Of a DNA stretch of 64,000 nucleotides, positions 3,066 through 23,798 are shown in pieces (position 1 is the first letter of the stretch; every line of letters begins with the position of its first letter). Made by a program: the position numbers and the translations under genes. Where the stretch lies: assembly GCF_030013595.1 (NCBI RefSeq), contig NZ_CP122768.1; one strand, written 5' to 3'. The notes under the pieces are model-generated. The model did not search any database and was not told the DNA's origin. It worked only from the letters and a program-made list of their open reading frames with translations. The DNA is from Escherichia coli. GTDB lineage: Bacteria; Pseudomonadota; Gammaproteobacteria; Enterobacterales; Enterobacteriaceae.

Positions 3066-3110
3066 TGGTGGGTCGTGCAGGATGACTCGCTTCGCTCGCC
3101 CTTCGGGCCG
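3066..3110 (-). repeat. tRNA-Lys 3'-end fragment (17 nt) fused to conserved spacer hairpin; copies also at 3455-3499 and 3948-3994
   Basis: TGGTGGGTCGTGCAGGA followed by TGACTCG(A)CTTCG(T)CTCGCCCTTCGGGCCG occurs three times in the operon spacers. Confidence 0.7.
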
Positions 3111-3190
3111 TCGCCGCGAGCGGCTCCGTTGTTTCGCTGCGCTCAACTCAAACCTGCTGCAGGTTCGAATCTTTGAGTATCGCAGATAGC

Positions 3191-3217
3191 AAAAAAGCGC
3201 CTTTAGGGCGCTTTTTT
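3191..3217. terminator. bidirectional intrinsic terminator ending the tRNA operon
   Basis: same hairpin as 3035-3061, immediately 3' of the last tRNA-Lys on the minus strand. Confidence 0.7.
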
Positions 3218-3221
3218 ACAT

Positions 3222-3297
3222 TGGTGGGTCGTGCAGGATTCGAACCTGCGACCAATTGATTAAAAGTCAACTGCTCTACCAACTGAGCTAACGACCC
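3222..3297 (-). tRNA. lysQ: tRNA-Lys (UUU)
   Basis: reverse complement reads the 76-nt tRNA-Lys sequence with CUUUUAA anticodon loop and CCA end; name by position relative to nadA. Confidence 0.95.
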
Positions 3298-3330
3298 CTT
3301 GCGGGATTATGCTGCTTTAATCATTCAGGA

Positions 3331-3406
3331 TGGTGGGTCGTGCAGGATTCGAACCTGCGACCAATTGATTAAAAGTCAACTGCTCTACCAACTGAGCTAA
3401 CGACCC
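3331..3406 (-). tRNA. lysZ: tRNA-Lys (UUU)
   Basis: identical 76-nt copy. Confidence 0.95.
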
Positions 3407-3552
3407 ATACGGGTGTTACCTGAAAGATTTCTACTCGGAACCAATCTTTAAAATTGGTGGGTCGTGCAGGATGACTCGCTTCGCTCGCCCTTCGGGCCGT
3501 TGCTGGCGCAACGTTATCCTTCACGCTTAACATCTGAGTTTGATGTTAAAAT

Positions 3553-3628
3553 TGGTGGGTCGTGCAGGATTCGAACCTGCGACCAATTGATTAAAAGTCA
3601 ACTGCTCTACCAACTGAGCTAACGACCC
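3553..3628 (-). tRNA. lysY: tRNA-Lys (UUU)
   Basis: identical 76-nt copy. Confidence 0.95.
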
Positions 3629-3631
3629 GAG

Positions 3632-3707
3632 TGGTGGGTGATGACGGGATCGAACCGCCGCCCCCCTCCTTGTAAGGGAGGTGCTCTCCCAGCTGAGCTA
3701 ATCACCC
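3632..3707 (-). tRNA. valZ: tRNA-Val (UAC), variant copy
   Basis: 76-nt tRNA-Val; differs from the copy at 3837-3912 by one base at 3661 (variable-loop position). Confidence 0.9.
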
Positions 3708-3758
3708 GATACTGCGCTGGATACTACAAACTACTTCCACCGAACCCACCGTAATTAG

Positions 3759-3834
3759 TGGTGGGTCGTGCAGGATTCGAACCTGCGACCAATTGATTAA
3801 AAGTCAACTGCTCTACCAACTGAGCTAACGACCC
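3759..3834 (-). tRNA. lysW: tRNA-Lys (UUU)
   Basis: identical 76-nt copy. Confidence 0.95.
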
Positions 3835-3836
3835 GG

Positions 3837-3912
3837 TGGTGGGTGATGACGGGATCGAACCGCCGACCCCCTCCTTGTAAGGGAGGTGCTCTCCCAGCTG
3901 AGCTAATCACCC
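3837..3912 (-). tRNA. valT: tRNA-Val (UAC)
   Basis: 76-nt tRNA-Val matching the canonical E. coli sequence as remembered. Confidence 0.95.
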
Positions 3913-4047
3913 AATACTACGCTGGATACTACAACTAACTATGTTAGTGGTGGGTCGTGCAGGATGACTCGACTTCGTCTCGCCCTTCGGGCCGTTGCTG
4001 ACGCAACGTTATCCTTCACGTTTTACTACCGCTTCCACCTTAGCGAT

Positions 4048-4123
4048 TGGTGGGTCGTGCAGGATTCGAACCTGCGACCAATTGATTAAAAGTCAACTGC
4101 TCTACCAACTGAGCTAACGACCC
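4048..4123 (-). tRNA. lysT: tRNA-Lys (UUU)
   Basis: identical 76-nt copy; first gene of the operon, adjacent to cpoB. Confidence 0.95.
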
Positions 4124-4287: not shown

Positions 4288-5079
4288 TTACATCGCGTTC
4301 AGACGTTTTTGCGCCTGTTTAGCGCCATCAGTACCAGGGTATTTACTGATAACCTGCTGGTATACGGCTTTCGCTTTTGCGGTGTCACCTTTGTCCTGCA
4401 TGATGACGCCGACTTTAAACATCGCATCTGCAGCCTTTGGCGACTTCGGATAGTTTTTTACTACCGAAGCAAAATAGTACGCCGCATCATCTTTTTTACC
4501 CTTGTTGTAGTTTAACTGACCCAGCCAATAATTGGCGTTTGGCAGGTAAGTTGAATCAGGGTAATTTTTGATGAAATTCTGAAATGCCACCATTGCGTCA
4601 TCCTGGCGGGATTTATCCTGCACCAGCGCAATAGCTGCATTGTAATCCGTGTTTGCATCACCGCTTTTCACCGGCGCGCCAGCATTCGCAGTACCAGCAT
4701 CAGCTGTCGGCGTCATTGATGCCGCCGCACCGCTTTGATCGCCGCTGGTTGATTGCGCCGCTGCACCACCGCTGCTGAGGCTATCGATCTGCAACAGGAT
4801 CTGCTTTTGCCGCTCCACGACCTGATTCAGTTGATACTGATTTTCCTGAATCTGACCACGCAGGGAATCAATATCGGATTGATTATCAGAGAGTTGTTGC
4901 TGGAGTTGGGTTAAAAGCTGGCTGTGAGCATTTGAAATACGCTCAAGTTGAGTGACGCGGTCTTCGACCGAGCCTGAGCCGACACTACTGATTGGTGCCT
5001 GAGCAAAAGCGGCCCAGGGGGCCGCTATACCAACCAGTAACGACAGACTCAATAGTTGATGTCTGAAGTTACTGCTCAT
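4288..5079 (-). CDS. cpoB: cell division coordinator CpoB (YbgF), TPR periplasmic protein
   Basis: 263-aa ORF with signal peptide, Gln-rich coiled coil and C-terminal TPR region; last gene of the tol-pal cluster. Confidence 0.94.
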   Translation of the reverse strand: MSSNFRHQLLSLSLLVGIAAPWAAFAQAPISSVGSGSVEDRVTQLERISNAHSQLLTQLQQQLSDNQSDIDSLRGQIQENQYQLNQVVERQKQILLQIDSLSSGGAAAQSTSGDQSGAAASMTPTADAGTANAGAPVKSGDANTDYNAAIALVQDKSRQDDAMVAFQNFIKNYPDSTYLPNANYWLGQLNYNKGKKDDAAYYFASVVKNYPKSPKAADAMFKVGVIMQDKGDTAKAKAVYQQVISKYPGTDGAKQAQKRLNAM

Positions 5080-5088
5080 GCAATTCTC

Positions 5089-5634
<546 letters not shown>

Positions 5635-5644
5635 TTAATTATTA

Positions 5645-6937
5645 TCACAGATACGGCGACCAGGCAGGGAATTTGACCTGTCCATCAGTTGCCGGAAGAC
5701 GCGCTTTGAAACGCCCATCTGTAGAAACCAAATTCAGCACGGATCCCATCCCCTGAGAAGAGCTGTAGATTACCATAGTGCCGTTAGGTGCCAGACTTGG
5801 CGTTTCATCCAGGAACGTGGACGACAGAACTTGTACGCCTCCCGTTGCCAGATCTTGTTTGGCAATGTGCTGCTGCCCACCATTGGAGCTGACCATTACC
5901 ATAAATTTACCGTCGCTGCTGACATCCGCATCCTGGTTCTGCGAACCTTCCCAGGTAATACGTTGTGGCGCACCGCCGTTGATATTCACTTTATAAACCT
6001 GTGGACGACCGGCCTGGTCAGAAGTAAATGCCAGGTTCTGGCTGTCCGGGAACCAGGTCGGTTCGGTATTGTTACTGCGACCATCCGTCACCTGGCGGAT
6101 CTGACCAGAAGCCAAATCCATTACGTATAGGTTCAGGCTACCAGTTTTCGACAAGGCGAATGCCAGTTTGCTGCCGTCTGGCGAGAATGCAGGTGCACCG
6201 TTGTGACGCGGGAATGAAGCCACCTGACGTACAGCGCCATTTGCCAGCGTTTGGATGACCAGCGCGGAACGACCGCTTTCGAAGGTCACATAAGCCAGTT
6301 TAGAACCGTCTGGTGACCACGCCGGAGACATCAGCGGCTGTGGTGAACGGTGAACGACAAATTGGTTGTAACCGTCATAGTCAGATACGCGCAGTTCATA
6401 CGGGAACTGACCGCCGTTGGTCTGAACAACGTAGGCAATACGGGTACGGAACGCACCTTTAATGCCGGTCAGTTTTTCAAACACTTCATCACTGGCGGTA
6501 TGACCAGCATAACGCAGCCACTGCTTGTTCACTTTGTACGAGTTCTGAGCAAGTACAGTACCCGGTGCGCCGCCAGTGTCAACAAGTTGATAAGCAACAT
6601 TGTAAGAACCATCCGGATTCGGAGTGACCTGACCGACAACTACAGCGTCAATACCCAGCGCGGACCATGCAGCTGGTTGTACTTCCTGCGCACTACCCGG
6701 CTGCTGTGGCAGACGAGCGCGATCTAACGGATTAAATTTACCGCTGTTACGCAAGTCGGCAGCAACGATGCCGCCAATATCTTCAGGTGCCGCACCAGGG
6801 CCCGCCCACTGGAAAGGAACAACTCCAATAGGACGACCGGAATCTACACCGCTGTCGATCACAATGCGGACTTCAGCATGCAGAACTGATGCCCACAGTA
6901 TGAGAAAACCAAATGCTACTCGTAATGCCTGCTTCAT
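5645..6937 (-). CDS. tolB: Tol-Pal system periplasmic beta-propeller protein TolB
   Basis: 430-aa ORF with signal peptide and repeated WD-like propeller motifs. Confidence 0.95.
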
Positions 6938-7069
6938 CATATCTCCCTTATCTGGACCGATGGCCCACGATAATTTAGCAGAATGTTAACAAACTAAAAT
7001 ACACAAAACTACCAGAACCCCGTGGCAACCGGTGCCTGATGTTGACCGTCGGAACAGTCAACATCGCGA

Positions 7070-8335
7070 TTACGGTTTGAAGTCCAATGGCGCGTTTTTG
7101 AACACTTCATATACTGCCTGGCTTGGTGGTTTCGGGATCTTCGCAAGTTTAGCTGCTGCCAACGCAGCCTGACAAAGTGCGGGATCGCCACCTTCAGGTT
7201 TGATATCCAGTAACATACCATCGGGTGCCAGTTTTATGCGCAGCGTACAGGTTTTGCCTGCATAGGACGATGCGTCATAGAACTTACTTTCGATAGCAGA
7301 TTTAATCTGCCCGGCATAGTTATTGATATCGGCCCCTGATGCGCCATTGTTTTTAGTATTACCACTCCCGGCTGGCGAAGCATTGTTCCCTTTCGCCCCT
7401 CCCCCCGTTTTCGGTGCATTCTTACCAGAGCTTAGCTCACCGAAAATATCATCTGCCTCTGCGGCAGCTTTTGCTGCAGCGGCTTTTTCAGCTGCTGCTT
7501 TTGCCGCTGCCGCTTTTTTGTCTGCGGCGGCTTTTTCTGCCGCTGCTTTCTTATCAGCAGCTGCCTTTTCAGCAGCCGCTTTTTCTGCTGCTTTTTTGTC
7601 GGCTGCAGCTTTCTCTGCTGCCGCTTTCTTATCAGCTGCAGCCTTTTCAGCAGCCGCTTTCTTATCAGCTTCTGCCTTGGCTTTTTCAGCAGCTTCAGTT
7701 GCCGCTTTCTTTCTTGCTTCAGCTGCAGCTGCTTCTGCCGCTTCCGCTTTCTTCTTCAGTGCCGCCGCGGCTGCCTCGGCTTTTTTCTGCGCTTCGGCTG
7801 CGGCTTTGGCGGCTTCTGCTTCTGCTTTTTTCTTCGCGTCTGCAGCCGCTTTCTTCGCAGCTTCTTCCGCAGCTTTAGCATCCGCTTCGGCCTTCGCTTT
7901 AGCATCTGCCGCCGCTTTCGCTGCCGCTTCTTCCGCTTGCTTCTGCTTTAACTCGGCCTGTTTTGCGGCTTCTTCAGCCTGCTTTTTCTGTTCCTGAGCA
8001 GCTAACCGCTCTTTCTCAAGTTGCTTCAGGCGTTCCTGTTCAGCCGCTTGTTTCTCACGCAGTTCTTCAGCAGCCTGCTGTTCCTTCATCTTGCGCTGCT
8101 CATCAGAACGCTTCGCGCTTGATTCCTGGCTTTGCATGCGTTTGTACTGCTCAACTACCGCACCTGAATCAACCATGACAGCGTCGATGGATGAACCACC
8201 GCCGCCTCCGGCTGAAGCTTCTATATTCTCATCGAACGAACTCCAGATCAGCGCCGCAAATAAGATGACATGCAGCACTGCTGAAATAATTATCGCCCGC
8301 TTGAGCTTGTCGTTTTGTTCGGTTGCCTTTGACAC
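7070..8335 (-). CDS. tolA: Tol-Pal system protein TolA
   Basis: 421 aa; N-terminal TM anchor, long Ala/Lys/Glu-rich helical domain II encoded by repetitive DNA (about 7430-7990), C-terminal domain III. Confidence 0.95.
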   Translation of the reverse strand: MSKATEQNDKLKRAIIISAVLHVILFAALIWSSFDENIEASAGGGGGSSIDAVMVDSGAVVEQYKRMQSQESSAKRSDEQRKMKEQQAAEELREKQAAEQERLKQLEKERLAAQEQKKQAEEAAKQAELKQKQAEEAAAKAAADAKAKAEADAKAAEEAAKKAAADAKKKAEAEAAKAAAEAQKKAEAAAAALKKKAEAAEAAAAEARKKAATEAAEKAKAEADKKAAAEKAAADKKAAAEKAAADKKAAEKAAAEKAAADKKAAAEKAAADKKAAAAKAAAEKAAAAKAAAEADDIFGELSSGKNAPKTGGGAKGNNASPAGSGNTKNNGASGADINNYAGQIKSAIESKFYDASSYAGKTCTLRIKLAPDGMLLDIKPEGGDPALCQAALAAAKLAKIPKPPSQAVYEVFKNAPLDFKP

Positions 8336-8399
8336 TCTCGGTTTCCAAAAACTGTTCGCCTGTTACCCGCTCTCTTTCAAGCAAGGGAAACGCAGATGT

Positions 8400-8828
8400 T
8401 TAGATAGGCTGCGTCATTAAACCAACCGATTTCACACCCGCACTATGTAACAAGTTCAGTGCTTTAATTATTTCATCGTAAGGCACATCTTTTGCGCCAC
8501 CGATCAGAAAGACCGTTTTCGGGTTGGCCTTGAAACGGCTGGACACTTCCGCCACCACCTGCTCTGGTGGTAAACGCTCCAGGCGATCTTTCTCAACCAC
8601 CACGGTGTACTGACCAATACCAGACACTTCAACAATCACTGGCGGATTATCGTTACTGCTCACCGCCTGTGATTCAGTAGCGTCTGGCAGATCGACCTCC
8701 ACGCTCTGGGTGATGATGGGCGCTGTCGCCATAAAGATCAGCAACAGCACCAGCAGTACGTCCAGCAACGGTACAATGTTGATTTCGGACTTGAGATCGC
8801 GACGACCTCGTCCACGCGCTCTGGCCAT
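8400..8828 (-). CDS. tolR: Tol-Pal system protein TolR
   Basis: 142 aa, ExbD/TolR family, single N-terminal TM. Confidence 0.95.
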   Translation of the reverse strand: MARARGRGRRDLKSEINIVPLLDVLLVLLLIFMATAPIITQSVEVDLPDATESQAVSSNDNPPVIVEVSGIGQYTVVVEKDRLERLPPEQVVAEVSSRFKANPKTVFLIGGAKDVPYDEIIKALNLLHSAGVKSVGLMTQPI

Positions 8829-8831
8829 GGC

Positions 8832-9925
<1,094 letters not shown>

Positions 9926-10023
9926 TTTACATCCCGGTAATGCAACAAAAGTTAGAGCTTTTAAACGCTGCTACTATACGCGCGCGATTGAGGTTTGGGA
10001 ATGAGGGCAAGTTAAGGGAGCGT

Positions 10024-10060
10024 AAAAATTTATGGGCCTGTAGCGGCCCATAATTTTTTA
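10024..10060. terminator. bidirectional intrinsic terminator (TATGGGCC-loop-GGCCCATA with T runs)
   Basis: hairpin immediately 3' of ybgE on the minus strand. Confidence 0.6.
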
Positions 10061-10074
10061 AAGAGAATTCTGAG

Positions 10075-10368
10075 TTAAAAGAAGAAGAAAATCAGCCCGA
10101 CAATGAGAACAATATCGGCAAGCAATGGGCAAAAAATCCCTTGCCAAAGAACCTTCTGCGGACGAAAGCCCACGCCGTGAATCACACCAGCACAGACGGC
10201 CCACATCAGCAATAAACCATGCCAGATTTCCAGTTCACTGGTCTTCGCGGCGAAACGTGATGGGTCCCAAAACATACATCCGGCTAACAGAAGCGCCATC
10301 ACGAAGGAAAGCGCCCGCAGGGGGCGCTTGTCCATTACCGCATACAAGGTTGCGATAATCTTACTCAT
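10075..10368 (-). CDS. ybgE: cyd operon small membrane protein YbgE
   Basis: 97-aa hydrophobic ORF downstream of cydX. Confidence 0.9.
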   Translation of the reverse strand: MSKIIATLYAVMDKRPLRALSFVMALLLAGCMFWDPSRFAAKTSELEIWHGLLLMWAVCAGVIHGVGFRPQKVLWQGIFCPLLADIVLIVGLIFFFF

Positions 10369-10481
10369 CAGATGTCTTCTTGACCGGCTTTGCCTGATTC
10401 GACGTGCTCAAGCGCCAGCGCGGTGATTACCCCAAACGAACAGGCAAGAAGCGTTCCCAGAATCCATGCGAAATACCACAT
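10368..10481 (-). CDS. cydX: cytochrome bd-I accessory subunit CydX (37 aa)
   Basis: translated by hand from the minus strand: MWYFAWILGTLLACSFGVITALALEHVESGKAGQEDI; not in the ORF track (too short); TGATG overlap with ybgE. Confidence 0.9.
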   Translation of the reverse strand: MWYFAWILGTLLACSFGVITALALEHVESGKAGQEDI

Positions 10482-10495
10482 TTTTAGCTCCTTAC

Positions 10496-11635
10496 TTAGT
10501 ACAGAGAGTGGGTGTTACGTTCAATATCTTCTTTGGTGATACGACCGAACATTTTCCAGTAACACCAGGCGGTGTAGAGCAGAATGATCGGTACCAGAAC
10601 CACCGCAACCCAAGTCATGACGTTAAGTGTCAGCTGGCTGGAAGTTGCATCCCACATTGTCAGACTTGCGTTCATCATGGTGCTGGACGGCATCACAAAC
10701 GGGAACATTGCGATACCGGCAGTCAGGATGATGCAGGCCAGCGTCAGGGAGGAGAACACAAACGCCCACGCGGCTTTATCCATACGTGCAGTCAGGATGG
10801 TCAGCAGCGGCAGAACCACACCCAGTGCCGGAATAGCCCACAGAATTGGCGTGTTGTTGAAGTTAACCAGCCATGCGCCAGCTTCACGAACCACTTCTTT
10901 ATTCAGCGGGTTAGAGGCTGCGTAATGGTCCATTGTCGATTTCACGACATAACCATCGATACCGTACATCACCCATACGCCAGCCAGTGCGAAACAGACC
11001 AGTGTCACCAGTGCCGCCACCTGAGCCGTTGCACGGGTACGCAGGTGCAGTTCGCCCACGGTACGCATTTGCAGATAGGTTGCGCCCTGAGTAATGATCA
11101 TCCCTACGCTCACCACGCCTGCCAGCAGGCCGAACGGGTTAAGCAGCTGGAAGAAGTTACCGGTGTAGTACAGACGCAGATATTCATCAACGTTGAACGG
11201 TACGCCCTGCAACAGGTTACCGAACGCTACACCAATCACCAACGGCGGAACGAAGCTACCAATGAAGATGCCCCAGTCCCACATGTTACGCCAGCGGGTT
11301 TCTTCAATCTTGGAGCGGTAGTCAAAACCGACCGGACGGAAGAACAAAGACGCCAGCACGAGGATCATCGCCACATAGAAGCCGGAGAACGCAGCGGCAT
11401 AGACCATCGGCCAGGCAGCAAAGAGTGCGCCGCCTGCGGTGATCAGCCAAACCTGGTTACCGTCCCAGTGTGGTGCGATGGAGTTAATCATAATTCGACG
11501 CTCGGTGTCGTTACGACCGAGGAAACGGGTGAGCATGCCCACCCCCATGTCGAAACCGTCAGTGACTGCAAAACCAATCAGCAGAACGCCAACCAGCAGC
11601 CACCAGATAAAACGCAATACTTCATAATCGATCAT
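10496..11635 (-). CDS. cydB: cytochrome bd-I ubiquinol oxidase subunit II
   Basis: 379-aa polytopic ORF matching CydB. Confidence 0.96.
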   Translation of the reverse strand: MIDYEVLRFIWWLLVGVLLIGFAVTDGFDMGVGMLTRFLGRNDTERRIMINSIAPHWDGNQVWLITAGGALFAAWPMVYAAAFSGFYVAMILVLASLFFRPVGFDYRSKIEETRWRNMWDWGIFIGSFVPPLVIGVAFGNLLQGVPFNVDEYLRLYYTGNFFQLLNPFGLLAGVVSVGMIITQGATYLQMRTVGELHLRTRATAQVAALVTLVCFALAGVWVMYGIDGYVVKSTMDHYAASNPLNKEVVREAGAWLVNFNNTPILWAIPALGVVLPLLTILTARMDKAAWAFVFSSLTLACIILTAGIAMFPFVMPSSTMMNASLTMWDATSSQLTLNVMTWVAVVLVPIILLYTAWCYWKMFGRITKEDIERNTHSLY

Positions 11636-11650
11636 TTGACGACTCCTGTC

Positions 11651-13219
11651 TTAGCGTGCCGGCTGAGTAGTCGTGGAAGACTGCTCAAAGTGATAGCGAC
11701 CGGTTTTCAGGCTGCTTGGGCCGAGGCGTGCAAACTTGAACATTAAGAACAATTCTGCCACCAGGAACAGGGTATACAGGCCGCAAATCAGCACCATTGA
11801 GAAGATGAGATCGCCTGCGGTCAGTGACGAGTTCGCCACAGCTGTCGGCAGCACTTCACCGATAGCCCACGGTTGGCGGCCATATTCAGCCACAAACCAG
11901 CCCGCTTCTACAGCAATCCACGGCAGCGGAATACCGTACAGCGCGGCGCGCAGCAGCCATTTTTTCTCGCCAATGCGGTTGCGGATGACACTCCAGAAAG
12001 AGAGCGCGATGATTGCCAGCAGCAGGAAGCCACACGCCACCATGATACGGAACGCGAAGTACAGCGGCGCTACACGCGGAATGGAGTCTTTGGTTGCCTG
12101 TTGAATCTGCGCTTCAGTCGCATCAGCCACGTTTGGCGTATAGCGTTTCAGCAGCAGACCGTAACCGAGGTCTTTCTTCATGCTATTGAACTGGTCACGA
12201 ACCGCCTGGTCGGTAGAACCAGAACGCAGTTGCTCGAGCAGAGAGTACGCCTTCATCCCGTTACGAATGCGTTCTTCATGCTGCACCATCAGTTCTTTCA
12301 GGCCGATAACTGGAGTATCCACGGAACGCGTTGCAATGATACCCAGCGCGTAAGGGATCTGGATCGCAAATTTGTTCGTCTCCTCTTCCTGATCAGGAAT
12401 GCCGAACAGAGTAAAGGCAGCAGGCGCAGGTTGCGTTTCCCACTCGGCTTCAATAGCAGCCAGTTTGGTTTTCTGCACGTCGCCCATTTCGTAACCAGAT
12501 TCATCACCCAGAACAATAACAGACAGAACGGCAGCCATACCGAAGCTGGCAGCGATAGCAAAGGAGCGTTTAGCGAAGGCGAAGTCACGACCTTTCAGCA
12601 TATACCATGCGCTGATACCGAGGATGAACATCGCGCCAGTCACATAACCAGACGCTACAGTGTGAACGAATTTCACCTGAGCAACCGGGTTAAGCACCAG
12701 CTCGGAGAAGCTCACCATCTCCATACGCATAGTTTCAAAGTTGAAATCAGACGCGATTGGGTTTTGCATCCAGCCGTTCGCAACCAGAATCCACAGTGCG
12801 GACAGGTTTGAACCGAGCGCCACCAGCCAGGTGACACACATATGCTGAACTTTACCCAGACGATCCCAACCGAAGAAGAACAGACCTACAAAGGTGGATT
12901 CGAGGAAGAAGGCCATTAGACCTTCGATTGCCAGCGGCGCACCGAAGATATCCCCTACATAGTGGGAATAGTAAGACCAGTTAGTCCCGAACTGGAACTC
13001 CATGGTCAGACCGGTAGCCACACCCAGAGCGAAGTTGATACCAAACAACTTGCCCCAGAACTTGGTCATATCTTTATAAATCTGTTTGCCGGAAAGGACG
13101 TAGACCGTTTCCATAATGGCCAGCAGGAACGCCATACCGAGCGTCAGTGGCACAAAAAGGAAGTGGTACATCGCGGTCAAGGCAAACTGTAAGCGCGACA
13201 GTTCGACTATATCTAACAT
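11651..13219 (-). CDS. cydA: cytochrome bd-I ubiquinol oxidase subunit I
   Basis: 522 aa from the second Met ([12 protein letters not shown]...); Q-loop region present. Confidence 0.96.
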
Positions 13220-13556
13220 CATGACTCCTTGCTCATCGCATGAAGACTCCGAGAGTGAACCCCGTTAGAAAGGGTCACACGCATGCCCCAATACAAAATT
13301 ATTTGCTCGCCTCTATCGTTGCCATTTCATCAAAAGAGGAAAAGACAATGATAAAAAAGTTACAAATATGTTAATGAATAAACCAAATTGATCCCGTAAT
13401 TATATTACGCCGCAAAATCCTTACAATAAACAGGTTTTTATTGAGCAAATTTGCATTTTTCGACAGTGATCAATTTATAGCGAAATTGTCACGATCTCAC
13501 CAATTTGATCTACGACAATTTATCGTGTTTTGCAGATTTTTTTCAAGAATTAAAAA

Positions 13557-13570
13557 TTGATTTATATCAA
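13557..13570. promoter_or_regulatory. FNR-consensus palindrome TTGAT-N4-ATCAA in the cydA upstream region
   Basis: perfect match to the FNR half-site palindrome about 340 bp upstream of the cydA start; cydAB is known to be FNR/ArcA regulated. Confidence 0.55.
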
Positions 13571-14024
13571 AATCAACCAAATATGTTAATTATGTATAAA
13601 CCATAGATCATTGGTAATTTTATTGTTAATTTATTGTGAAATATTTATGCAACACAATTATTACAATGAAAAAGTATAGATAAAAAACCAGTGTTTTATT
13701 TAACAGAACCGCCCTATCCACTTTTTATAATACCAATTGATTAGAGTAGCCAATTTGTTGCTATTTTACATAACATATTTTTATCAAAGTTAATTGATTG
13801 TTGCCTTTATGAGCACCGGCCGTAAGCCCGTTATGTTATTGTTTCATTAGTAATAATCACTTAAATGTATCGATGAAACAGGTATGACTTAGCGGGAGTG
13901 ATTGTTTCTGAGTGAACAGAGACCACTTTCGCCTGATAAATGAAAAATGAGCGATTTTTGCAAGTTAGTTTTTCTATAGCCGAGTACGCTCAGCGCCTCG
14001 CTTGATTACAATGAGGTTGCTGCT

Positions 14025-14969
14025 ATGAGTCCTGATAATATCAGTTCTGCTGTCAATCGCTTCTCAGGTTGGCCATCTAATGATCCTCTAAAAACAGATA
14101 AAGAATCAATGACATCACCCATGACTGTGCAGGTAATAAAGATGATTGCCGCCATCCTTGACCCACATCGGATAGTCGTTGGAATCGATACACTTTATAC
14201 AACGCAGCGCGAAACATTTACCTCAGAGAGTCAACAGCTCATTGAATCAGCATTGCAAACACTTCATGTGATGAATTTAAATAACCTGGAAACAAATCTC
14301 GATGAGGAAGGTCACTATCTGGCTTTTGGATATAACGTTGACACTCCTGACAGAATAACCGTTTCTGCTTATAATGAAAAAAAGCCTGGCTGCTATGGCC
14401 AATGTCTTTTAATACAGGATGACGAAACAGACTTATTTAACCTGATAAAAGTTAAAATTTTTGAAGCCAGGCATAATTATGTCGCTCAATTGATGAGCGA
14501 TCCGGAATTTATGTTCAAATTTAGTTATAGCGCTCAACAAAATAGATTAGAACCTCATCTTCTGGTTCCCACTTATTTCCCTCTAAAAACAAACGAACCG
14601 GTTACGCAAGAGGATGTACTGTTACTTTATCGTTTCTTTAAAATGGATGGTGATTTTAATATATTAACATCAGATGAATACATGAGTATCATGACACCTC
14701 TAATGAAGTGTGAGCGTAGCATCCACGACCACAACAGGTATGTGACGGGCAAAGATCCCCTTCTTCTGGACTATCCTCCTTCTGGTAACCAGATATATTT
14801 CCATATTTTTCCTGACGAATCAGCAACACTAGTCCTTTATTTTTCAAACAATGACATTGAATGTTTCGTCTTTGAAAGAGATATTCCGAGCCAGTATCGC
14901 TTTTTCAAAATGTTTACCAATCTGGCACTGGTTATTGATCAGTTAACCGATGCCAATCAAATACTTTAA
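14025..14969 (+). CDS. hypothetical protein, 314 aa, low GC, no recognisable domain
   Basis: clean ORF with a GAGG Shine-Dalgarno 8 nt upstream; polar Ser/Pro-rich N-terminus; no signal peptide or TM segment; AT-rich codon usage unlike flanking core genes. Confidence 0.7.
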   Translation: MSPDNISSAVNRFSGWPSNDPLKTDKESMTSPMTVQVIKMIAAILDPHRIVVGIDTLYTTQRETFTSESQQLIESALQTLHVMNLNNLETNLDEEGHYLAFGYNVDTPDRITVSAYNEKKPGCYGQCLLIQDDETDLFNLIKVKIFEARHNYVAQLMSDPEFMFKFSYSAQQNRLEPHLLVPTYFPLKTNEPVTQEDVLLLYRFFKMDGDFNILTSDEYMSIMTPLMKCERSIHDHNRYVTGKDPLLLDYPPSGNQIYFHIFPDESATLVLYFSNNDIECFVFERDIPSQYRFFKMFTNLALVIDQLTDANQIL

Positions 14970-15049
14970 TTTTTATATATTCCCTGTGGCAAATATTGCT
15001 AAACAATGCCCGGGGATTAATTTTTATTACTCACGGAAAGATTTAAATA

Positions 15050-15472
15050 ATGATCCCATCTCAAATCTCTTTCAACACCCTTCCTGTCAATGCAACATAC
15101 GCTTCAGAGACAACAGTTGACACACAAAAATTCTCTGACATCCTCTACTCAGCGGGGTGTTCCCTAAAGGATCTGGCTTATCTGAGCAGATGTCTGGCAT
15201 CAATACATCCGACTATCGCCAAAAACATTTATGAAACAGAAAATCTCAGCGATCAAAAATTACTACATATTGATTGCCGTAGTACAAATGAAATCAAGAT
15301 AAATATCTTTTTTGGTCAACAACGAGAAGGATTAATTGAAATTAGTTCTGACACAGTCATTTTTTCGATACTGTCTTCATTGATTGACTCCACCATTTCT
15401 AAATTTCAACACCAAAACCCCGTTAACGGTTCTGTAAATCCTGACCTATTGTATGAGGATTATACTGATTAA
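15050..15472 (+). CDS. hypothetical small acidic protein, 140 aa, low GC
   Basis: ORF 80 bp downstream of the 314-aa gene on the same strand; acidic composition, no TM; no family recognised. Confidence 0.6.
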   Translation: MIPSQISFNTLPVNATYASETTVDTQKFSDILYSAGCSLKDLAYLSRCLASIHPTIAKNIYETENLSDQKLLHIDCRSTNEIKINIFFGQQREGLIEISSDTVIFSILSSLIDSTISKFQHQNPVNGSVNPDLLYEDYTD

Positions 15473-16019
15473 ATCCCTCCTGTCGCGAAAAATGGCCTGC
15501 GTTATTGCCAGACGTAATAAAACTTTTGATTAACGTTTCTCGTACTGGTAGCACCTTCATGTACTTTTCTTTTTTACGAAAAATCAAAAGAGCTAACAAA
15601 GGTCATAATTCGCATGAATCATTAATTATTTGTTATTTTCAACATTATTTTTACATTAAGCAGAGATGAATTGCAGTGAAATTCGACTTAATTTTTATGA
15701 AATGCATTTACTCATGGCTAAAGCCACGTCACAAAAATGCAAATTAGAAGTTGATCACAATTATCTCAATACATCAAATCAAGTTAATTTTAAAAATTTA
15801 ACATTCATGACACTAGTTGACATAACACACTGAATTAAAATGAGAATTTGGAAACACACTTTAAACAATCATTTCCCGAAAGACATTTTGAAAATAGATC
15901 AATTGCAACATTACGGTCAGATAAAGACACTCCTGTGATATTAAACCTGTGCCGTTATGAACGGCCATAAATACGACGTGTGTAACTTATTTTACTCTCT
16001 GTCTTACAAAGGATTACCC

Positions 16020-16469
16020 ATGAAGAAAGCAACACTTGTGATTGGCGTTATTGGCGCGGACTGCCATGCAGTAGGCAATAAAGTTCTGGACCGCGTTTTT
16101 AGCAACCATGGCTTCAGAGTCATTAATCTGGGCGTAATGGTCAGCCAGGACGAATATATTGATGCTGCCATTGAAACTGGCGCTGACGCGATTGTCGTCT
16201 CCTCTATCTATGGGCATGGCGATATCGACTGTCTGGGCATGCGCGAACGCTGCATCGAGCGTGGACTGGGTGACATCCTGCTCTATGTGGGCGGTAACCT
16301 GGTGGTCGGAAAACATGACTTCGCTGACGTGGAAACCAAATTTAAAGAGATGGGATTTGATCGCGTCTTTGCCCCAAGTCATGACTTAGAAGATGTTTGT
16401 CAGCTGATGGCCCACGATATCAACCAACGTCATGACGTTGATACTCGCATTCTTGAAGAGGCAATCTGA
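16020..16469 (+). CDS. glmS: glutamate mutase sigma (S) subunit, cobalamin-binding
   Basis: start placed at [21 protein letters not shown] after an AAGGA Shine-Dalgarno; the D-x-H-x-x-G B12-binding motif (DCHAVG) is present; similar to clostridial MutS/GlmS. Confidence 0.9.
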
Positions 16470-17857
16470 TGCAAATCGTCTCTGTCGATATTGGATCGAC
16501 GTGGACCAAAGCAGCCCTCTTCGCCCGGGAGGGGGACGCGTTAACGTTGGTTAACCACGTACTGACCCCAACCACCACCCATCATCTGGCGAAGGGGTTT
16601 TTCTCCAGCCTGAACCTGGTGTTAAACGTAGATAATGCCCTCCCCCTGTTTAACAGCGGTGAGGTTACATTGAAGTATTCCTCCTCTGCCAAAGGTGGGC
16701 TGGCGGTTGCCGCAATGGGATTGGTGCCTTCTATCACCCTGGAAACCGCGAAAGTAACCGCTCACTCTGCGGGGGCTAAAATTGCGCAATATTACTCCTA
16801 CAAGCTGAACCGCCGTGATATCCAGGCACTGGAAGAAACGCAGCCCGATATTCTCTTGTTCACCGGCGGCACCGACGGCGGAGAAGAAAGCTACGGCCTG
16901 AATAACGCCCGTGTGCTGGCAGAATCCAAACTCGACTGCGCCATTATTTATGCCGGAAACCGGGATATTCAGGACGAAGTGCAGGAGATCCTAGGGCATA
17001 AAGACCTGACCATCGTCGACAACGTTCTGCCCGATCTTGACCATCCGAACCCTTTAGCCGCACGCCAGGCTATCTGCGACATATTCCTTAAACGCATCGT
17101 TAAAGGGAAAGGGCTGGATGTCGTTGTTGATAAAACAGGCGAAGAACCAATGCCGACACCATGGACGGTCTTTGAACTGGTTAAGGCAATCAGTAACGTC
17201 GATCACAGCTGGAAAGAGTTCATGCTGATCGACATGGGCGGCGCAACCACCGATGTCTATTCCGCCTGTGCCAACACGCTCTCGCCCGACACCGTTTTAC
17301 ACGGCGTACCGGAACCCTTCGTGAAACGGACGGTGGAAGGCGATCTGGGAATGCGCGTCTCGGCAATGGTGGTTGGTGAAAGTGCGAAAGAGTTAGTCAA
17401 TGTGAATTTTGCTCAGCAACCCGCACAGCTGGACGCTTTTTATCATTACCTCCGTCATCTAGTCGCTCATCCCGACTACTTACCCGCGAATGCAGAAGAA
17501 AAATATTTCGATACCGTCCTGGCCGGACTGTGTGTGGGTTATGCCACCGAAAGACATGCGGGCACCAAAAAAGAGGTCTGCACCTGCGTCGGCAATGTCG
17601 ATTTACAGATGGGACGTGACCTGACAACCGTGCGTAAAGTCGTCGGATCCGGCGGATGGCTCTCGCGTGCCAGTCAGTTCGATATGCATCACTGGTTGAA
17701 ATACCGCGAGTTAAACGACGACGGTAAACGCATTCTCTTACCGACCGAATTTGAATATTACCGCGATTCCCGGGGGCTATTACCACTGCTGGCAAACGTC
17801 GCCAGAGTCGATCCTCTGGCCGCCGCGCGCACCAGTATTCAATGCTTAACCCTATAA
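16469..17857 (+). CDS. glmL: glutamate mutase-associated protein L (MutL/GlmL, putative reactivase)
   Basis: 462-aa ORF between the S and E subunit genes, as in clostridial glutamate mutase operons. Confidence 0.85.
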   Translation: MQIVSVDIGSTWTKAALFAREGDALTLVNHVLTPTTTHHLAKGFFSSLNLVLNVDNALPLFNSGEVTLKYSSSAKGGLAVAAMGLVPSITLETAKVTAHSAGAKIAQYYSYKLNRRDIQALEETQPDILLFTGGTDGGEESYGLNNARVLAESKLDCAIIYAGNRDIQDEVQEILGHKDLTIVDNVLPDLDHPNPLAARQAICDIFLKRIVKGKGLDVVVDKTGEEPMPTPWTVFELVKAISNVDHSWKEFMLIDMGGATTDVYSACANTLSPDTVLHGVPEPFVKRTVEGDLGMRVSAMVVGESAKELVNVNFAQQPAQLDAFYHYLRHLVAHPDYLPANAEEKYFDTVLAGLCVGYATERHAGTKKEVCTCVGNVDLQMGRDLTTVRKVVGSGGWLSRASQFDMHHWLKYRELNDDGKRILLPTEFEYYRDSRGLLPLLANVARVDPLAAARTSIQCLTL

Positions 17858-17875
17858 CAATTAAGGCTGCAATCA

Positions 17876-19321
17876 ATGGAACTTCGAAATAAGAAATTAA
17901 CCCATGACGAATTCATGACCGAGCGGCAACAGGTACTGAAAACCTGGGAAACCGGCAAGGATGTTGAAAACTTTGAAGATGGCGTTAAATACCAACAAAC
18001 CATTCCTGAGCATAAACGCTTCTCTCTTGCGCTGTTGAAAGCAGACAAGGAAGGTAAAACCCTTAGCCAACCGCGCGCAGGTGTGGCGCTGATGGACGAA
18101 CACATCGAACTACTGAAAACACTACAAGAAGAGTGCGATCTGCTGCCGAGCACTATCGATGCATATACCCGTCTGAATCGGTACGAAGAAGCGGCTGTAG
18201 GGATTAAAAAATCCATCGAAGCCGGAACCTCTAAACTGAACGGTTTGCCGGTAGTTAACCATGGCGTCGCAGCTTGCCGTCGCCTCACCGAAACCCTGCA
18301 AAAACCGCTACAGATCCGCCACGGCACGCCAGATGCGCGTCTGCTGGCTGAAATCTCAATGGCCAGCGGCTTTACCAGTTATGAAGGCGGTGGCATTTCC
18401 TACAACATTCCGTATGCCAAACGCGTAACGCTGGAAAAATCGATCCGCGACTGGCAGTACTGCGACCGTTTAATGGGGATGTATGAAGAACACGGGATCC
18501 GCATCAACCGCGAACCGTTTGGCCCACTAACGGGTACGCTGATCCCGCCGTTTATCTCGCACTCTATCGCGATAATCGAAGGCTTGCTGGCGCTGGAACA
18601 GGGTGTGAAATCTATCACCGTTGGTTATGGACAGGTCGGCAGCCTGACGCAGGATGTTGCGGCGATCCAGTCTCTGCGTGAACTTGCACACGAATATTTT
18701 CAGAGCTATGGCTATACCGACTATGAATTAAGTACCGTGTTTCACCAGTGGATGGGCGGCTTTCCGGAAGACGAATCGAAAGCGTTCGCTATTATCTCCT
18801 GGGGCGCAGCCGTCGCGGGGATGTCTGGTGCCACCAAAGTCATCACCAAAAGTCCGCACGAAGCCTGGGGCATCCCGACTGCCGCTGCCAACATTCAGGG
18901 GCTGAAAGCCTCCCGCCAGATGCTCAACATGGTCAACGAGCAGAAATTCCCGCCGTGCCCTGCGGTTGAACTGGAAATTGAACTGATTAAGAGCGAGGTT
19001 CGCGCGGTACTGAATAAAGTGTTCGAACTGGGTAATGGTGATATTGCGCGCGGTACGGTGCTGGCATTTGAAGCGGGCGTACTGGATGTGCCGTTTGCGC
19101 CAGCCGCCTGCAACGCGGGCAAAATTCTTCCGGTCCGTGACAACACCGGCGCGATACGCGTACTGGAAGCCGGAGCCGTTCCATTGCCAAAAGATATTCT
19201 CGACCTCCACCACGATTACGTTGCTGAACGCGCACGCTTTGAAGGACGCCAACCGACATTCCAGATGGTTGTAGATGACATCAATGCTGTATCCCACAGT
19301 AAATTAATAGGAAGACCATAA
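17876..19321 (+). CDS. glmE: glutamate mutase epsilon (E) subunit
   Basis: 481 aa with strong collinear similarity to clostridial GlmE (e.g. PRAGVALxDEHIELL, REPFGPLTGTL, VFHQWMGGFP). Confidence 0.92.
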   Translation: MELRNKKLTHDEFMTERQQVLKTWETGKDVENFEDGVKYQQTIPEHKRFSLALLKADKEGKTLSQPRAGVALMDEHIELLKTLQEECDLLPSTIDAYTRLNRYEEAAVGIKKSIEAGTSKLNGLPVVNHGVAACRRLTETLQKPLQIRHGTPDARLLAEISMASGFTSYEGGGISYNIPYAKRVTLEKSIRDWQYCDRLMGMYEEHGIRINREPFGPLTGTLIPPFISHSIAIIEGLLALEQGVKSITVGYGQVGSLTQDVAAIQSLRELAHEYFQSYGYTDYELSTVFHQWMGGFPEDESKAFAIISWGAAVAGMSGATKVITKSPHEAWGIPTAAANIQGLKASRQMLNMVNEQKFPPCPAVELEIELIKSEVRAVLNKVFELGNGDIARGTVLAFEAGVLDVPFAPAACNAGKILPVRDNTGAIRVLEAGAVPLPKDILDLHHDYVAERARFEGRQPTFQMVVDDINAVSHSKLIGRP

Positions 19322-20562
19322 TGAAAATAAAACAGGCTCTGTTCACCGCTGGCTACTCCTCATTCTATTTCGATGACCAGCAGGCGATAAAAAACGGAGC
19401 GGGTCATGACGGCTTTTTTTATACCGGGGAGCCAGTAACACAGGGGTTTAACGCCGTACGTCAGGCCGGGGAGTGCGTATCGGTACAGTTGATTCTGGAA
19501 AACGGCGCGGTCGCCGTAGGTGACTGTGCTGCCGTACAGTATTCCGGGGCAGGTGGTCGCGATCCACTGTTCCTCGCAGAGCACTTTATTCCGTTCCTCA
19601 ACGACCATATCAAGCCATTACTGGTAGGCCGCGATGTGGATGCTTTCCTGCCGAATGCCCGTTTCTTCGACAAATTGCGTATTGACGGCAACTTGCTACA
19701 TACCGCCGTGCGCTACGGATTATCACAGGCGCTGCTTGATGCTACCGCGCTGGCAACCGGCCGTCTGAAAACTGAAGTAGTTTGCGATGAATGGCAGTTG
19801 CCACGCGTGGCGGAATCCATTCCATTATTTGGTCAGAGCGGTGACGATCGATATATCGCCGTCGATAAGATGATCCTTAAGGGCATCGACGTGCTGCCCC
19901 ATGCACTGATTAATAACGTCGAAGAGAAACTAGGCTTTAAAGGTGAAAAACTGCGCGAATATGTCCGCTGGCTGTCGGATCGTATTCTGAGCAAGCGCAC
20001 CAGCGCACGCTACCACCCTACCCTGCACATCGATGTATACGGCACTATCGGTCTGATCTTCGATATGGATCCGCTTCGCTGTGCGCAATACATCGCCAGC
20101 CTGGAAAAAGAAGCGCAAGGCCTGCCGCTCTACATTGAAGGGCCGGTCGATGCCGGTAACAAGCCCGATCAAATTCGCCTGCTGACCGCGATTACCAAAG
20201 AGCTGACGCGCCTCGGTTCCGGCGTGAAAATTGTGGCCGATGAATGGTGTAACACCTACCAGGATATTGTTGATTTTACTGATGCCGCCAGTTGCCACAT
20301 GGTGCAAATCAAAACCCCGGATCTGGGCAGTATTCACAACATCGTCGATGCGGTTCTTTACTGCAACAGCCACAGCATGGAAGCGTACCAGGGCGGCACC
20401 TGCAATGAAACTGATGTCAGTGCCTGCACCTGTGTCCACGTCGCCCTTGCCGCTCGCCCTATGCGTATGCTGGTAAAGCCAGGGATGGGCTTTGACGAAG
20501 GCCTCGATATCGTCTTCAACGAAATGAATCGTACTATCGCGCTGTTGCAGGCTAAGGATTAA
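19321..20562 (+). CDS. mal: 3-methylaspartate ammonia-lyase (beta-methylaspartase)
   Basis: 413 aa; enolase-superfamily MAL motifs (AVQYSGAGGRDPLF, HMVQIKTPDLG, KPGMG); overlaps glmE stop (TAATG). Confidence 0.93.
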   Translation: MKIKQALFTAGYSSFYFDDQQAIKNGAGHDGFFYTGEPVTQGFNAVRQAGECVSVQLILENGAVAVGDCAAVQYSGAGGRDPLFLAEHFIPFLNDHIKPLLVGRDVDAFLPNARFFDKLRIDGNLLHTAVRYGLSQALLDATALATGRLKTEVVCDEWQLPRVAESIPLFGQSGDDRYIAVDKMILKGIDVLPHALINNVEEKLGFKGEKLREYVRWLSDRILSKRTSARYHPTLHIDVYGTIGLIFDMDPLRCAQYIASLEKEAQGLPLYIEGPVDAGNKPDQIRLLTAITKELTRLGSGVKIVADEWCNTYQDIVDFTDAASCHMVQIKTPDLGSIHNIVDAVLYCNSHSMEAYQGGTCNETDVSACTCVHVALAARPMRMLVKPGMGFDEGLDIVFNEMNRTIALLQAKD

Positions 20563-20565
20563 CAA

Positions 20566-21936
20566 ATGGCTCGTTCTTTTAAAGTCTTATCGCCAACGGC
20601 AATCCTCGGGTATGGATTCCCGGAAGAGAGCTTCCGTAAAGCGATGGCAGAATCGCCCGATCTGATCGCCGTTGATGCAGGCTCTTCCGATCCTGGCCCC
20701 CACTACCTCGGGGCGGGCAAACCGTTTACCGATCGCGCAGGGGTCAAGCGCGATCTGCGCTATATGATCACCGCAGGCGTGCAAAATAATATACCGGTGG
20801 TGATCGGAACGGCTGGCGGTTCTGGTGCCGCACCACACCTGGAGTGGTGCCGAGAAATAATTCATGAGATTGCCCGGGAAGAGCACCTCTCGTTCTCGAT
20901 GGCGTTGATCCCGGCAGACGTTGACAAAGCCATCGTCCACCAGGCGCTGGATAACGGCAAAATCACGGCGCTGGATTTTGTCCCGCCGTTAACCCACGAC
21001 GCGATTGACGAAAGTACGTATATCGTCGCGCAAATGGGCATCGAACCCTTCCAGCAGGCGCTGAAAGAAGGCGCGCAAGTGGTGCTGGGCGGGCGCGCTT
21101 ACGACCCGGCCTGCTTTGCTGCGCTACCGATCATGCAAGGCTTTGATGAAGGTCTGGCGCTGCATTGTGGGAAAATCCTTGAATGCGCGGCAATCGCCGC
21201 AACGCCCGGCTCAGGCTCTGACTGGGCGATGGGCATCATTGATGACAACGGCTTTACGCTGAAGACATTTAATCCGAAGCGTAAATTTACCGAAACGTCA
21301 GCGGCTGCACACACACTGTATGAGAAATCCGATCCCTACTTCCTGCCAGGACCTGGCGGCGTGTTGAACCTGAAAGACTGCACATTTAAAGCGGTCAATG
21401 ACGGCGAAGTGTACGTCAGCGGTTCTAAGCATGAAGAAACGCCGTATGCCCTGAAACTGGAAGGTGCGCGACGAGTGGGCTTCCGCTGTCTGACCATCGC
21501 AGGAACGCGCGACCCGATCATGATCGCCGGGATCGATAAAATCATCGATGAAGTCAAAACCAGCGTTTCGCGTAACCTGTCGCTCGACGATGACAGCATT
21601 CACATCAATTTCCACCTGTACGGCAAAAACGGGGTGATGGGCGACCATGAACCGATGCAAACTGCCGGGCATGAGCTGGGGATTGTCCTTGATGTAGTTG
21701 CACCGACCCAGGAAATTGCCAATAGCGTTTGCTCGCTGGTGCGCTCTACCATGCTGCACTACGGCTATGAAAACCGCATCGCTACCGCAGGCAATCTGGC
21801 GTTCCCGTTCTCCCCTTCTGATATCCAGGGCGGGCCGGTATACGAATTTTCCATATATCACCTGATTGAAGCCAACGACGCTCTGCGTTTTGATTTCCAT
21901 ATTGAACAGGTGACGCCAGAAGGAGTTCAGGCATGA
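20566..21936 (+). CDS. DUF1446 (AtuA-like) family protein, function unknown
   Basis: 456-aa soluble ORF; family assignment from remembered N-terminal pattern, not verified. Confidence 0.6.
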   Translation: MARSFKVLSPTAILGYGFPEESFRKAMAESPDLIAVDAGSSDPGPHYLGAGKPFTDRAGVKRDLRYMITAGVQNNIPVVIGTAGGSGAAPHLEWCREIIHEIAREEHLSFSMALIPADVDKAIVHQALDNGKITALDFVPPLTHDAIDESTYIVAQMGIEPFQQALKEGAQVVLGGRAYDPACFAALPIMQGFDEGLALHCGKILECAAIAATPGSGSDWAMGIIDDNGFTLKTFNPKRKFTETSAAAHTLYEKSDPYFLPGPGGVLNLKDCTFKAVNDGEVYVSGSKHEETPYALKLEGARRVGFRCLTIAGTRDPIMIAGIDKIIDEVKTSVSRNLSLDDDSIHINFHLYGKNGVMGDHEPMQTAGHELGIVLDVVAPTQEIANSVCSLVRSTMLHYGYENRIATAGNLAFPFSPSDIQGGPVYEFSIYHLIEANDALRFDFHIEQVTPEGVQA

Positions 21937-22250
21937 AACAGTCAATTGTCTCACTGGCGCAAGTCATTCGTTCGAAAAATGCCGGACCTTACGAACTGGT
22001 TTTAGATATTTTATTTAAAACCAAAGAAAACTATGAGCGTGTCAAATCATCAGGGCAATTAACCCCAGAACTGATCGCGCGCTTATATCATGTTGAACCT
22101 GACTTTATTCATCGTATTGTCTGGTTTGATCCTTCTAACGCAGTAAAAATCGTCATGCCACGAGATATTATCTCCGGGAATGTAGGTGACAATGATGTCT
22201 ATGGTGCACAGCAACATGCACCTTTATTAAATATGAGTTTCGATTTGTAA
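21933..22250 (+). CDS. DUF4387-like small protein, function unknown
   Basis: 105-aa ORF translationally coupled (ATGA overlap) to the DUF1446-like gene; remembered SKNAGP and YGAQQH motifs. Confidence 0.55.
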   Translation: MKQSIVSLAQVIRSKNAGPYELVLDILFKTKENYERVKSSGQLTPELIARLYHVEPDFIHRIVWFDPSNAVKIVMPRDIISGNVGDNDVYGAQQHAPLLNMSFDL

Positions 22251-22333
22251 AAATCCGAATACTTTTAGCCAACTGACATCCCGTCACTTATTGCAGTTCA
22301 ACACTTCAGCTATTTGTAAGGTTGTAATAGCAG

Positions 22334-22375
22334 GTAGATGCCTGAATCTCTATTCAGGCATCTACTTCTCCTGAT
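22334..22375 (+). terminator. intrinsic terminator or attenuator hairpin (14-bp perfect stem GTAGATGCCTGAAT / ATTCAGGCATCTAC)
   Basis: perfect inverted repeat with CTCT loop followed by a T-rich tract, between the DUF4387-like gene and the transporter. Confidence 0.6.
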
Positions 22376-22410
22376 TCTGATTTATCGCCGCGCACCTGAT
22401 GGAGGAAAAA

Positions 22411-23691: not shown

Positions 23692-23798
23692 GGGGGATCT
23701 TAAGCAATCAGAAGCCAATGACTACGCATTTTTATAAGCCGGATCATGAAGTTAGACGGCAATTAAGTAACACTAACGTTTAAGGTGAAAAGTGAAAT

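Follow-up and report, generated by a model that had tools for sequence, protein, structure and literature searches.

Background

The best described counterpart of the locus considered here is the lysT operon of Escherichia coli K-12, which yields a single transcript of about 1,100 nt that is taken apart by RNase P, beginning at the 3' end, once the terminator, itself described in the same study, has been removed (PMC4176162). Among its genes are two for tRNA-Val1 (anticodon cmo5UAC), valT and valZ, which can be told apart by the spacer leading into the tRNA-Lys gene that follows each of them: Val-CC-Lys corresponds to valT-lysW and Val-CUC-Lys to valZ-lysY (PMC4176162). In K-12 these two belong to a set of five Val(UAC) genes--valT, valZ, valU, valX and valY--that are identical to one another and that all have U at position 47 (see also PMC4176162).

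The valine identity set consists of A73, A35, C36, G20, G45, G3-C70 and U4-A69, and does not include position 47 (PMC9976931). This position is modified in several E. coli tRNAs: acp3U47 occurs in tRNAs Arg2, Ile1/2, Lys, Met, Phe and Val2A/B (PMC6895100), which, as substrates of TapT/TuaA, carry the modification within the variable loop next to m7G46. The U47 of tRNA-Val(cmo5UAC), however, is not acp-modified, and this tRNA has served as a negative control (PMC7026641). E. coli tRNA-Val does carry m7G46 (PMC13052159), and, according to a review, the TrmB protein of Aquifex requires a variable loop with the sequence AGG*UC (PMC4033218).

Here a lysT operon is analysed that lies within a window from E. 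coli (that is, the whole stretch of 64,000 nucleotides taken from contig NZ_CP122768.1) and whose two tRNA-Val(UAC) genes differ by a single base. Beyond what was recognised in a first-pass annotation of this DNA, the analysis identifies the variant copy, which has G instead of U at position 47 (termed here the G47 allele), as valZ, and finds this substitution again, in other genomes, in each of the five E. coli Val(UAC) genes. The reading that is regarded here as likely is that the G47 isodecoder in the valZ slot is real and inherited, that it has recurrently arisen or been copied, and that it is most likely neutral or nearly neutral. In the literature collection searched, no paper was found to describe the G47 allele or variation in the lysT operon; as data, the allele is already known, being present in public reference genomes. 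The sole mildly new point is the recurrence of one substitution in all five paralogous Val(UAC) genes.

Results and discussion

A lysT operon with one variant valine tRNA gene

A 1.2-kb query from the window aligns with E. coli chromosomes where a tRNA cluster adjoins cpoB, and in the window, too, the operon lies between cpoB (4288-5079) and nadA (1745-2788). ARAGORN identifies seven tRNA genes within positions 3222-4123, all on the minus strand: five for tRNA-Lys(UUU), which are also recognised by Rfam and which on exact comparison are mutually identical, and two for tRNA-Val(UAC), each of which scores 65.9 bits against the Rfam tRNA model RF00005. Read along the minus strand, the operon begins with lysT (4048-4123) and continues with valT (3837-3912), which leads through the dinucleotide CC into lysW (3759-3834); after a 51-nt spacer follows valZ (3632-3707), which leads through CTC into lysY (3553-3628); and lysZ (3331-3406) and lysQ (3222-3297) complete the series. 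The 22 or so nucleotides upstream of valZ (3708-3729, minus strand) align with those upstream of valT (3913-3934). Immediately 3' of lysQ, a Rho-independent terminator can be read from the sequence at 3191-3217 (minus strand) as GCGCC-CTAAA-GGCGC followed by TTTTTT; a consensus terminator scan of the window did not report it, probably as the flanking A and T runs were absorbed into the stem. A promoter scan found no consensus sigma-70 site.

Each tRNA-Val(UAC) gene is 76 nt long, and exact comparison of the two reveals one mismatch, at tRNA position 47, where G is found in the copy at 3632-3707 (position 3661 of the window, which is C on the plus strand) and the canonical T, or U in the transcript, in the copy at 3837-3912 (position 3866, A on the plus strand). 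With a D-loop of 8 nt and a variable loop of 5 nt, linear position 47 is also canonical position 47. The first-pass annotation had described a single-base difference at 3661, a U to G change at variable-loop position 47, and every detail of that description is borne out by the direct comparison. The CTC (CUC) spacer that follows the variant copy establishes that this copy is valZ; of the two Val genes in this cpoB-proximal Lys/Val operon it comes second, and it is followed, after CTC, by the tRNA-Lys gene lysY.

In its gene order and in its CC and CUC junction spacers the operon agrees with that of K-12 (PMC4176162). The valT gene of the window is identical to its K-12 counterpart at 76 of 76 positions, whereas valZ matches at 75 of 76, the exception being U47G; valZ thus departs from the sequence common to K-12 valT, valZ, valU, valX and valY and is an isodecoder variant. 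The two operons differ as well in spacer length: lysW-valZ and lysZ-lysQ measure 51 and 33 nt in the window, as opposed to 149 and 132 nt in K-12, where a module of about 99 nt resembling RtT RNA is present.

Distribution of the G47 allele among E. coli genomes

The first-pass annotation had offered a strain polymorphism as one explanation and had proposed a comparison across E. coli genomes. That comparison supports the proposal: of 5,426 complete E. coli genomes, 206 contain the exact G47 allele (76 of 76 positions), among them those of the O157:H7 strains Sakai and EDL933. The allele has 298 copies in all, with a maximum of two per genome; it is found in 3.8% of the genomes and makes up about 1.1% of all Val(UAC) copies, in a set of complete RefSeq genomes within which O157:H7 is oversampled. 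A perfect canonical U47 allele occurs in all 5,428 records with a Val(UAC) match and in 5,425 of the 5,426 genomes, and accounts for 25,867 of the 26,752 Val(UAC) matches; the 587 that remain are non-perfect and include partial matches. These perfect-match counts were obtained by placing the E-value limit between the scores of a perfect match and of a match with one mismatch.

The slot occupied by each G47 copy was assigned by perfect matches specific to the gene junctions, which place the allele in valT in 172 genomes, in valZ in 117, in valU in six, in valX in one and in valY in seven. The lysT operon thus accounts for 289 of the 303 G47 copies. For valU, valX and valY the counts come from a three-block chimeric query with its middle block reverse-complemented and with a tightened cut-off, and the matches were verified in the sequences of five carriers, one per lineage. 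Two earlier procedures were discarded: a first chimeric query for these three genes, in which blocks with one mismatch gained a chance base and gapped alignments crossed blocks; and slot counts by BLAST identity bands, in which adjoining tRNA-Lys pieces were joined and identity was inflated (at least 99% for 3,478 and 2,007 records). Added over the slots, the copies come to 303, slightly more than the 298 perfect 76-mers, and a few G47 copies therefore have a further change within positions 1-29 or are split by the start of a record. From these counts, the allele is estimated to occupy both valT and valZ in about 88 genomes, valT only in about 84 and valZ only in about 29, so that the genotype of the window is found in about 0.5% of genomes.

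Sixteen lysT operons from other strains were genotyped along with that of the window. Written as valT/valZ, the genotype is G/G in Sakai; G/T in Z1816 (O157:H7), PMV-1, Es_ST80, 210205630, R1 and WP2-S18-ESBL-08; T/G in FWSEC0010, EC812A1, 700481, RIVM_C029670, STEC388 and HCP5S3_I2, as in the window; and T/T in K-12 and M7424. OkiPb01698 has a single Val gene, which is G.

The closest relatives of the window over 20 kb are two pig isolates, HCP5S3_I2 and LCP30S3_I5 (99.9% identity). HCP5S3_I2, which was isolated in the UK, shares with the window U47 in valT, G47 in valZ, the series of spacers (135/2/51/3/146/33) and an identical upstream flank; the two are nevertheless distinct genomes, with 99.8-99.9% identity over 1.2 kb and 20 kb. 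Its sister isolate LCP30S3_I5 likewise gives a perfect G47 match at the valZ junction. Sakai and EDL933 have the same 76-nt G47 allele as the valZ gene of the window; in Sakai, however, it occupies both slots (ECs_R0039 and ECs_R0041) of an operon without lysQ, whereas in the window it occupies valZ only, all seven genes being present, and there are 7 differences between the two in 700 positions of flanking haplotype. Even within O157:H7, valZ is not uniform and has either G or U: on identical flanks, Sakai is G/G and Z1816 G/T.

The allele outside E. coli

Of 100,044 species-representative genomes, that of Mixta tenebrionis alone contains a 32-mer diagnostic of G47; given this near-absence, G47 is derived within E. 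coli, and U47, which is overwhelmingly common, is the ancestral state. In strain BIT-26 of M. tenebrionis (family Erwiniaceae) a tRNA-Val(UAC) at positions 182-257 of the locus examined, in a Lys-Val-Lys arrangement, shares G47, the anticodon arm and the T-stem with valZ of the window, but differs from it in having T16, T20 and G59. The same gene consequently does not have G20, which in E. coli is a minor ValRS identity element.

When metagenomes were scanned for any base other than T at position 47, only two contigs were found, both with C47, a result that is uninformative about allele frequencies in E. coli. These JGI metagenome contigs (tRNA-Val(UAC) at 576-651 and 1859-1934, respectively) have 72% G+C and belong to an unrelated organism. 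Their tRNA-Val shares the E. coli anticodon arm and the 5' strand of the T-stem; position 47, then, varies among bacteria.

Origin of the allele

Within E. coli the derived allele has arisen or been copied repeatedly. It occurs on at least five flank haplotypes, as compared over 700 nt of the upstream flank, and on identical 700-nt flanks it is found in opposite slots: in valT in 210205630 and R1, and in valZ in FWSEC0010, EC812A1 and 700481. (Independent origins are judged here by these 700-nt flanks rather than by a genome phylogeny.)

Two kinds of event might account for this pattern. The first is mutation. T47 is immediately preceded by five consecutive Gs, so that the substitution converts GGGGGT into GGGGGG; judging from this context, the change would be favoured by primer slippage and realignment or, alternatively, could come about as an A:T to C:G transversion caused by oxidised dGTP. 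Local templated mutation to G47 has no template in the window, where no other GGAGGGGGGCGGCGG-like sequence is found. The case for recurrent mutation comes from the K-12 laboratory strain W3110-P (NZ_CP084899.2) and six derivative records, which have G47 in valY and U47 in valT, valZ, valU and valX; in other words, G47 is present in this lineage with no donor copy elsewhere in the genome. Strain 2013C-3513, similarly, has G47 in valU only, as the one copy in its genome.

The second kind of event is exchange between paralogues. In the window strain valT and valZ lie within a direct repeat of about 177 nt (some 22 nt of upstream sequence, the Val gene, the short spacer and the Lys gene), the two copies of which are about 205 nt apart, and such a repeat would allow the two genes to undergo gene conversion or unequal exchange with each other. 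Their upstream 35-mers align as ..GTAGTATCCAGCG[T/C]AGTAT[C/T]. In M7424 the 35 nt upstream of valT contain the valZ-type marker CCAGCGCAGTATC instead of CCAGCGTAGTAT[C/T], which, from the sequence, looks like the footprint of a conversion between valT and valZ.

A narrower account would dispense with recurrent mutation altogether: G47 would have originated once and have spread only by homologous recombination between strains and by conversion between paralogues. E. coli recombines often, which counts in favour of this account, as do the concentration of G47 copies in the adjacent lysT-operon pair rather than in the three valU-operon genes, the repeat shared by valT and valZ together with the apparent footprint in M7424, and the occurrence of G/G and G/T genotypes on identical O157:H7 flanks. 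The concentration in the lysT operon, however, mostly disappears when occurrences are counted by haplotype and slot instead of by copy. The count is then nine for the lysT operon, with its two Val genes, and five for the valU operon, with its three, which is no significant departure from a uniform per-gene rate (P=0.058); the raw excess is due for the most part to clonal descent within O157:H7, a lineage that has been sampled heavily. A single origin is also at odds with the valY allele of W3110-P, a laboratory lineage in which natural gene flow is not expected and for which no donor is present, and with the isolated valU allele of 2013C-3513; moreover, each swap of slots on identical flanks (G/T versus T/G) would require at least two conversion or import events. 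This account is therefore considered unlikely. The recurrence of G47 is instead attributed, from its sequence context, to what is probably a mutational hotspot beside the run of five Gs, with conversion between valT and valZ probably contributing as well.

Functional implications

Position 47 is an unpaired nucleotide, one that in the standard tRNA structure faces the solvent and lies outside the tertiary pairs. The valZ gene with G47 fits RF00005 exactly as well as does the U47 copy, with a score far above the gathering score of 29; folded into the canonical cloverleaf, either allele has an energy of -29.8 kcal/mol. The minimum free energies are -35.0 kcal/mol for G47 and -34.6 kcal/mol for U47, and for neither allele is the corresponding structure the cloverleaf. 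A degenerate copy or tRNA pseudogene was considered and rejected: the gene is full length, CCA is encoded, and both the model score and the cloverleaf energy are unchanged. All of the listed valine identity elements, and the anticodon UAC, are intact in both alleles.

Because the gene lies inside the polycistronic lysT operon (PMC4176162) and because its identity elements are intact, it is presumed to be expressed, processed and charged. The G47 transcript would be cut from the polycistronic precursor by RNase P as its neighbours are, and the resulting tRNA would be charged by ValRS and would read GUN codons as the canonical species does. 

The first-pass annotation had also raised the possibility of a functional isodecoder change at a position that is modified in several E. 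coli tRNAs. In this the general statement holds, position 47 being so modified in a number of tRNAs (PMC6895100), but its application to this isoacceptor does not, since tRNA-Val(cmo5UAC) is not acp-modified there (PMC7026641). Loss of acp3U by way of G47 can thus be set aside, as the tRNA is unmodified even with U47 (PMC7026641). The TapT/TuaA substrates include the operon's five tRNA-Lys; the valZ G47 tRNA, which has no U47, falls outside that group, and its substitution removes no known modification.

That G47 is most likely neutral or nearly neutral follows from position 47 being unpaired, lying outside the ValRS determinants and carrying no modification in this isoacceptor. In O157:H7, a successful clone, two of the five Val(UAC) genes are G47. 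The population pattern points the same way: an allele that is rare, that is found in no more than two of the five copies and that is variable within O157:H7 fits a neutral or nearly neutral allele better than an adaptive one.

It might be argued, to the contrary, that G47 defines a functionally distinct isodecoder whose recurrence is due to selection, acting through m7G46 and TrmB, folding, stability, tRNA fragments or a tRNA-targeting factor. The identical substitution is, after all, seen in all five slots and in many lineages; it is maintained in two of the five Val(UAC) genes in part of the O157:H7 clone; and it has become fixed in a laboratory K-12 stock. G47 also abuts m7G46, which, in view of the AGG*UC loop reported to be required by a TrmB orthologue (PMC4033218), suggests that it could affect methylation by TrmB; G46 and the 5-nt variable loop are themselves retained in the G47 allele. 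Finally, folding predictions weakly suggest that G47 adds one more G-C pair, C27-G47, to a register-slipped anticodon hairpin. Combining these last two points, a specific form of the argument would have m7G46 lost or shifted, or the anticodon stem folded in the slipped register; selection, or tolerance under particular conditions, of the resulting hypomodified or less stable tRNA-Val would then have occurred repeatedly in lineages such as O157:H7.

Most of what is observed runs counter to selection, however. The allele is rare by genome and by gene copy alike; it never occupies more than two of five copies and is unfixed outside one oversampled clone, within which valZ still varies between G and U; and it is missing from 100,043 of the 100,044 species representatives. 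Covariance-model score and cloverleaf energy are unaffected by it. In this tRNA, position 47 is neither an identity element (PMC9976931) nor a modification site (PMC7026641), and the predicted additional pair belongs to a comparison in which neither minimum-energy structure is the cloverleaf. Selection on a distinct isodecoder is accordingly judged to be improbable, and the specific form involving m7G46 or the slipped fold, taken by itself, seems a distinctly improbable explanation. What is favoured is that G47 in valZ is an ordinary polymorphism, probably neutral, in a redundant tRNA gene, with no special isodecoder function indicated.

As a natural allele of a redundant tRNA gene, G47 has little importance for biology at large. 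It does have certain modest uses. The position-47 genotype of valT, valZ and valU can serve as a cheap lineage marker, as with G/G versus G/T in O157:H7; the recurrence of one substitution in five identical genes provides a natural example of a mutational hotspot or of concerted evolution; and G47 is a natural variant suited to asking whether TrmB depends on nucleotide 47.

Possible sequencing or assembly error

The remaining explanation, listed by the first-pass annotation as a sequencing error, is that the G at 3661 arose in sequencing, assembly or polishing, as a homopolymer miscall or through cross-mapped reads. The change does create a homopolymer of six Gs, and GGT read as GGG is an Illumina systematic-error motif; the five genes are nearly identical over 76 nt, and valT and valZ over about 177 nt, which makes short-read polishing harder; and some carrier assemblies contain further, unusual tRNA SNPs. 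Yet the same base is present in the same slot in the independently assembled HCP5S3_I2 (the closest relative) and LCP30S3_I5, as well as at the valZ junction in 117 genomes; Sakai, EDL933 and many other O157:H7 assemblies carry G47 consistently; and an error driven by sequence context should strike all five identical copies, whereas G47 is specific to a slot and stable within a lineage, as in the W3110-P lineage, where one of the five identical copies (valY) is hit, consistently over seven assemblies. A private sequencing error is therefore very unlikely, and the base at 3661 should not be 'corrected' in assembly polishing.

As to the unusual SNPs, STEC388, which is a carrier of G47, has tRNA-Lys genes at 1055-1130 and 1551-1626 of the locus examined with the SNPs G53A and T60C, of which G53A would break the conserved G53-C61 pair, and 2013C-3513, also a carrier, has C5T in lysV. 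These may be real variants or assembly noise, and some of the single, sporadic G47 calls may likewise be assembly noise.

Variation in operon architecture

The operon also varies among strains in the lengths of its spacers and in its number of genes. Each long spacer consists of a short spacer plus a module of about 99 nt that is RtT-like (RF00391) and whose end is a copy of the final 18 nt of tRNA-Lys. In the window such modules occupy the lysT-valT spacer (3948-4047, minus strand; 60.6 bits) and the lysY-lysZ spacer (3455-3552, minus strand; 57.8 bits), the RF00391 matches continuing into lysT as far as 4116 and into lysY as far as 3621; altogether, RtT-like regions are found on the minus strand at 3948-4116, 3455-3621 and 3066-3191. 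Across strains the short and long forms measure 35 and 135 nt for lysT-valT, 51 and 149-150 nt for lysW-valZ, 48 and 146 nt for lysY-lysZ, and 33 and 132 nt for lysZ-lysQ. Inasmuch as every one of these spacers is either short or long, depending on the strain, the modules are independent presence/absence polymorphisms.

Gene number varies as well: Sakai, Z1816 and 700481 have six tRNA genes, with one Lys gene fewer, and OkiPb01698 has lost one Lys-Val unit, its single remaining Val gene being G47. Such variation is consistent with unequal exchange between repeats.

Beyond the operon, positions 4300-24300 of the window are covered to at least 80% in only 1,122 of 5,426 genomes. Annotated features in the matching regions include methylaspartate mutase subunit E, glmL and an AtuA-family protein, as well as tolB and cydA, and an accessory gene cluster appears to lie within it.
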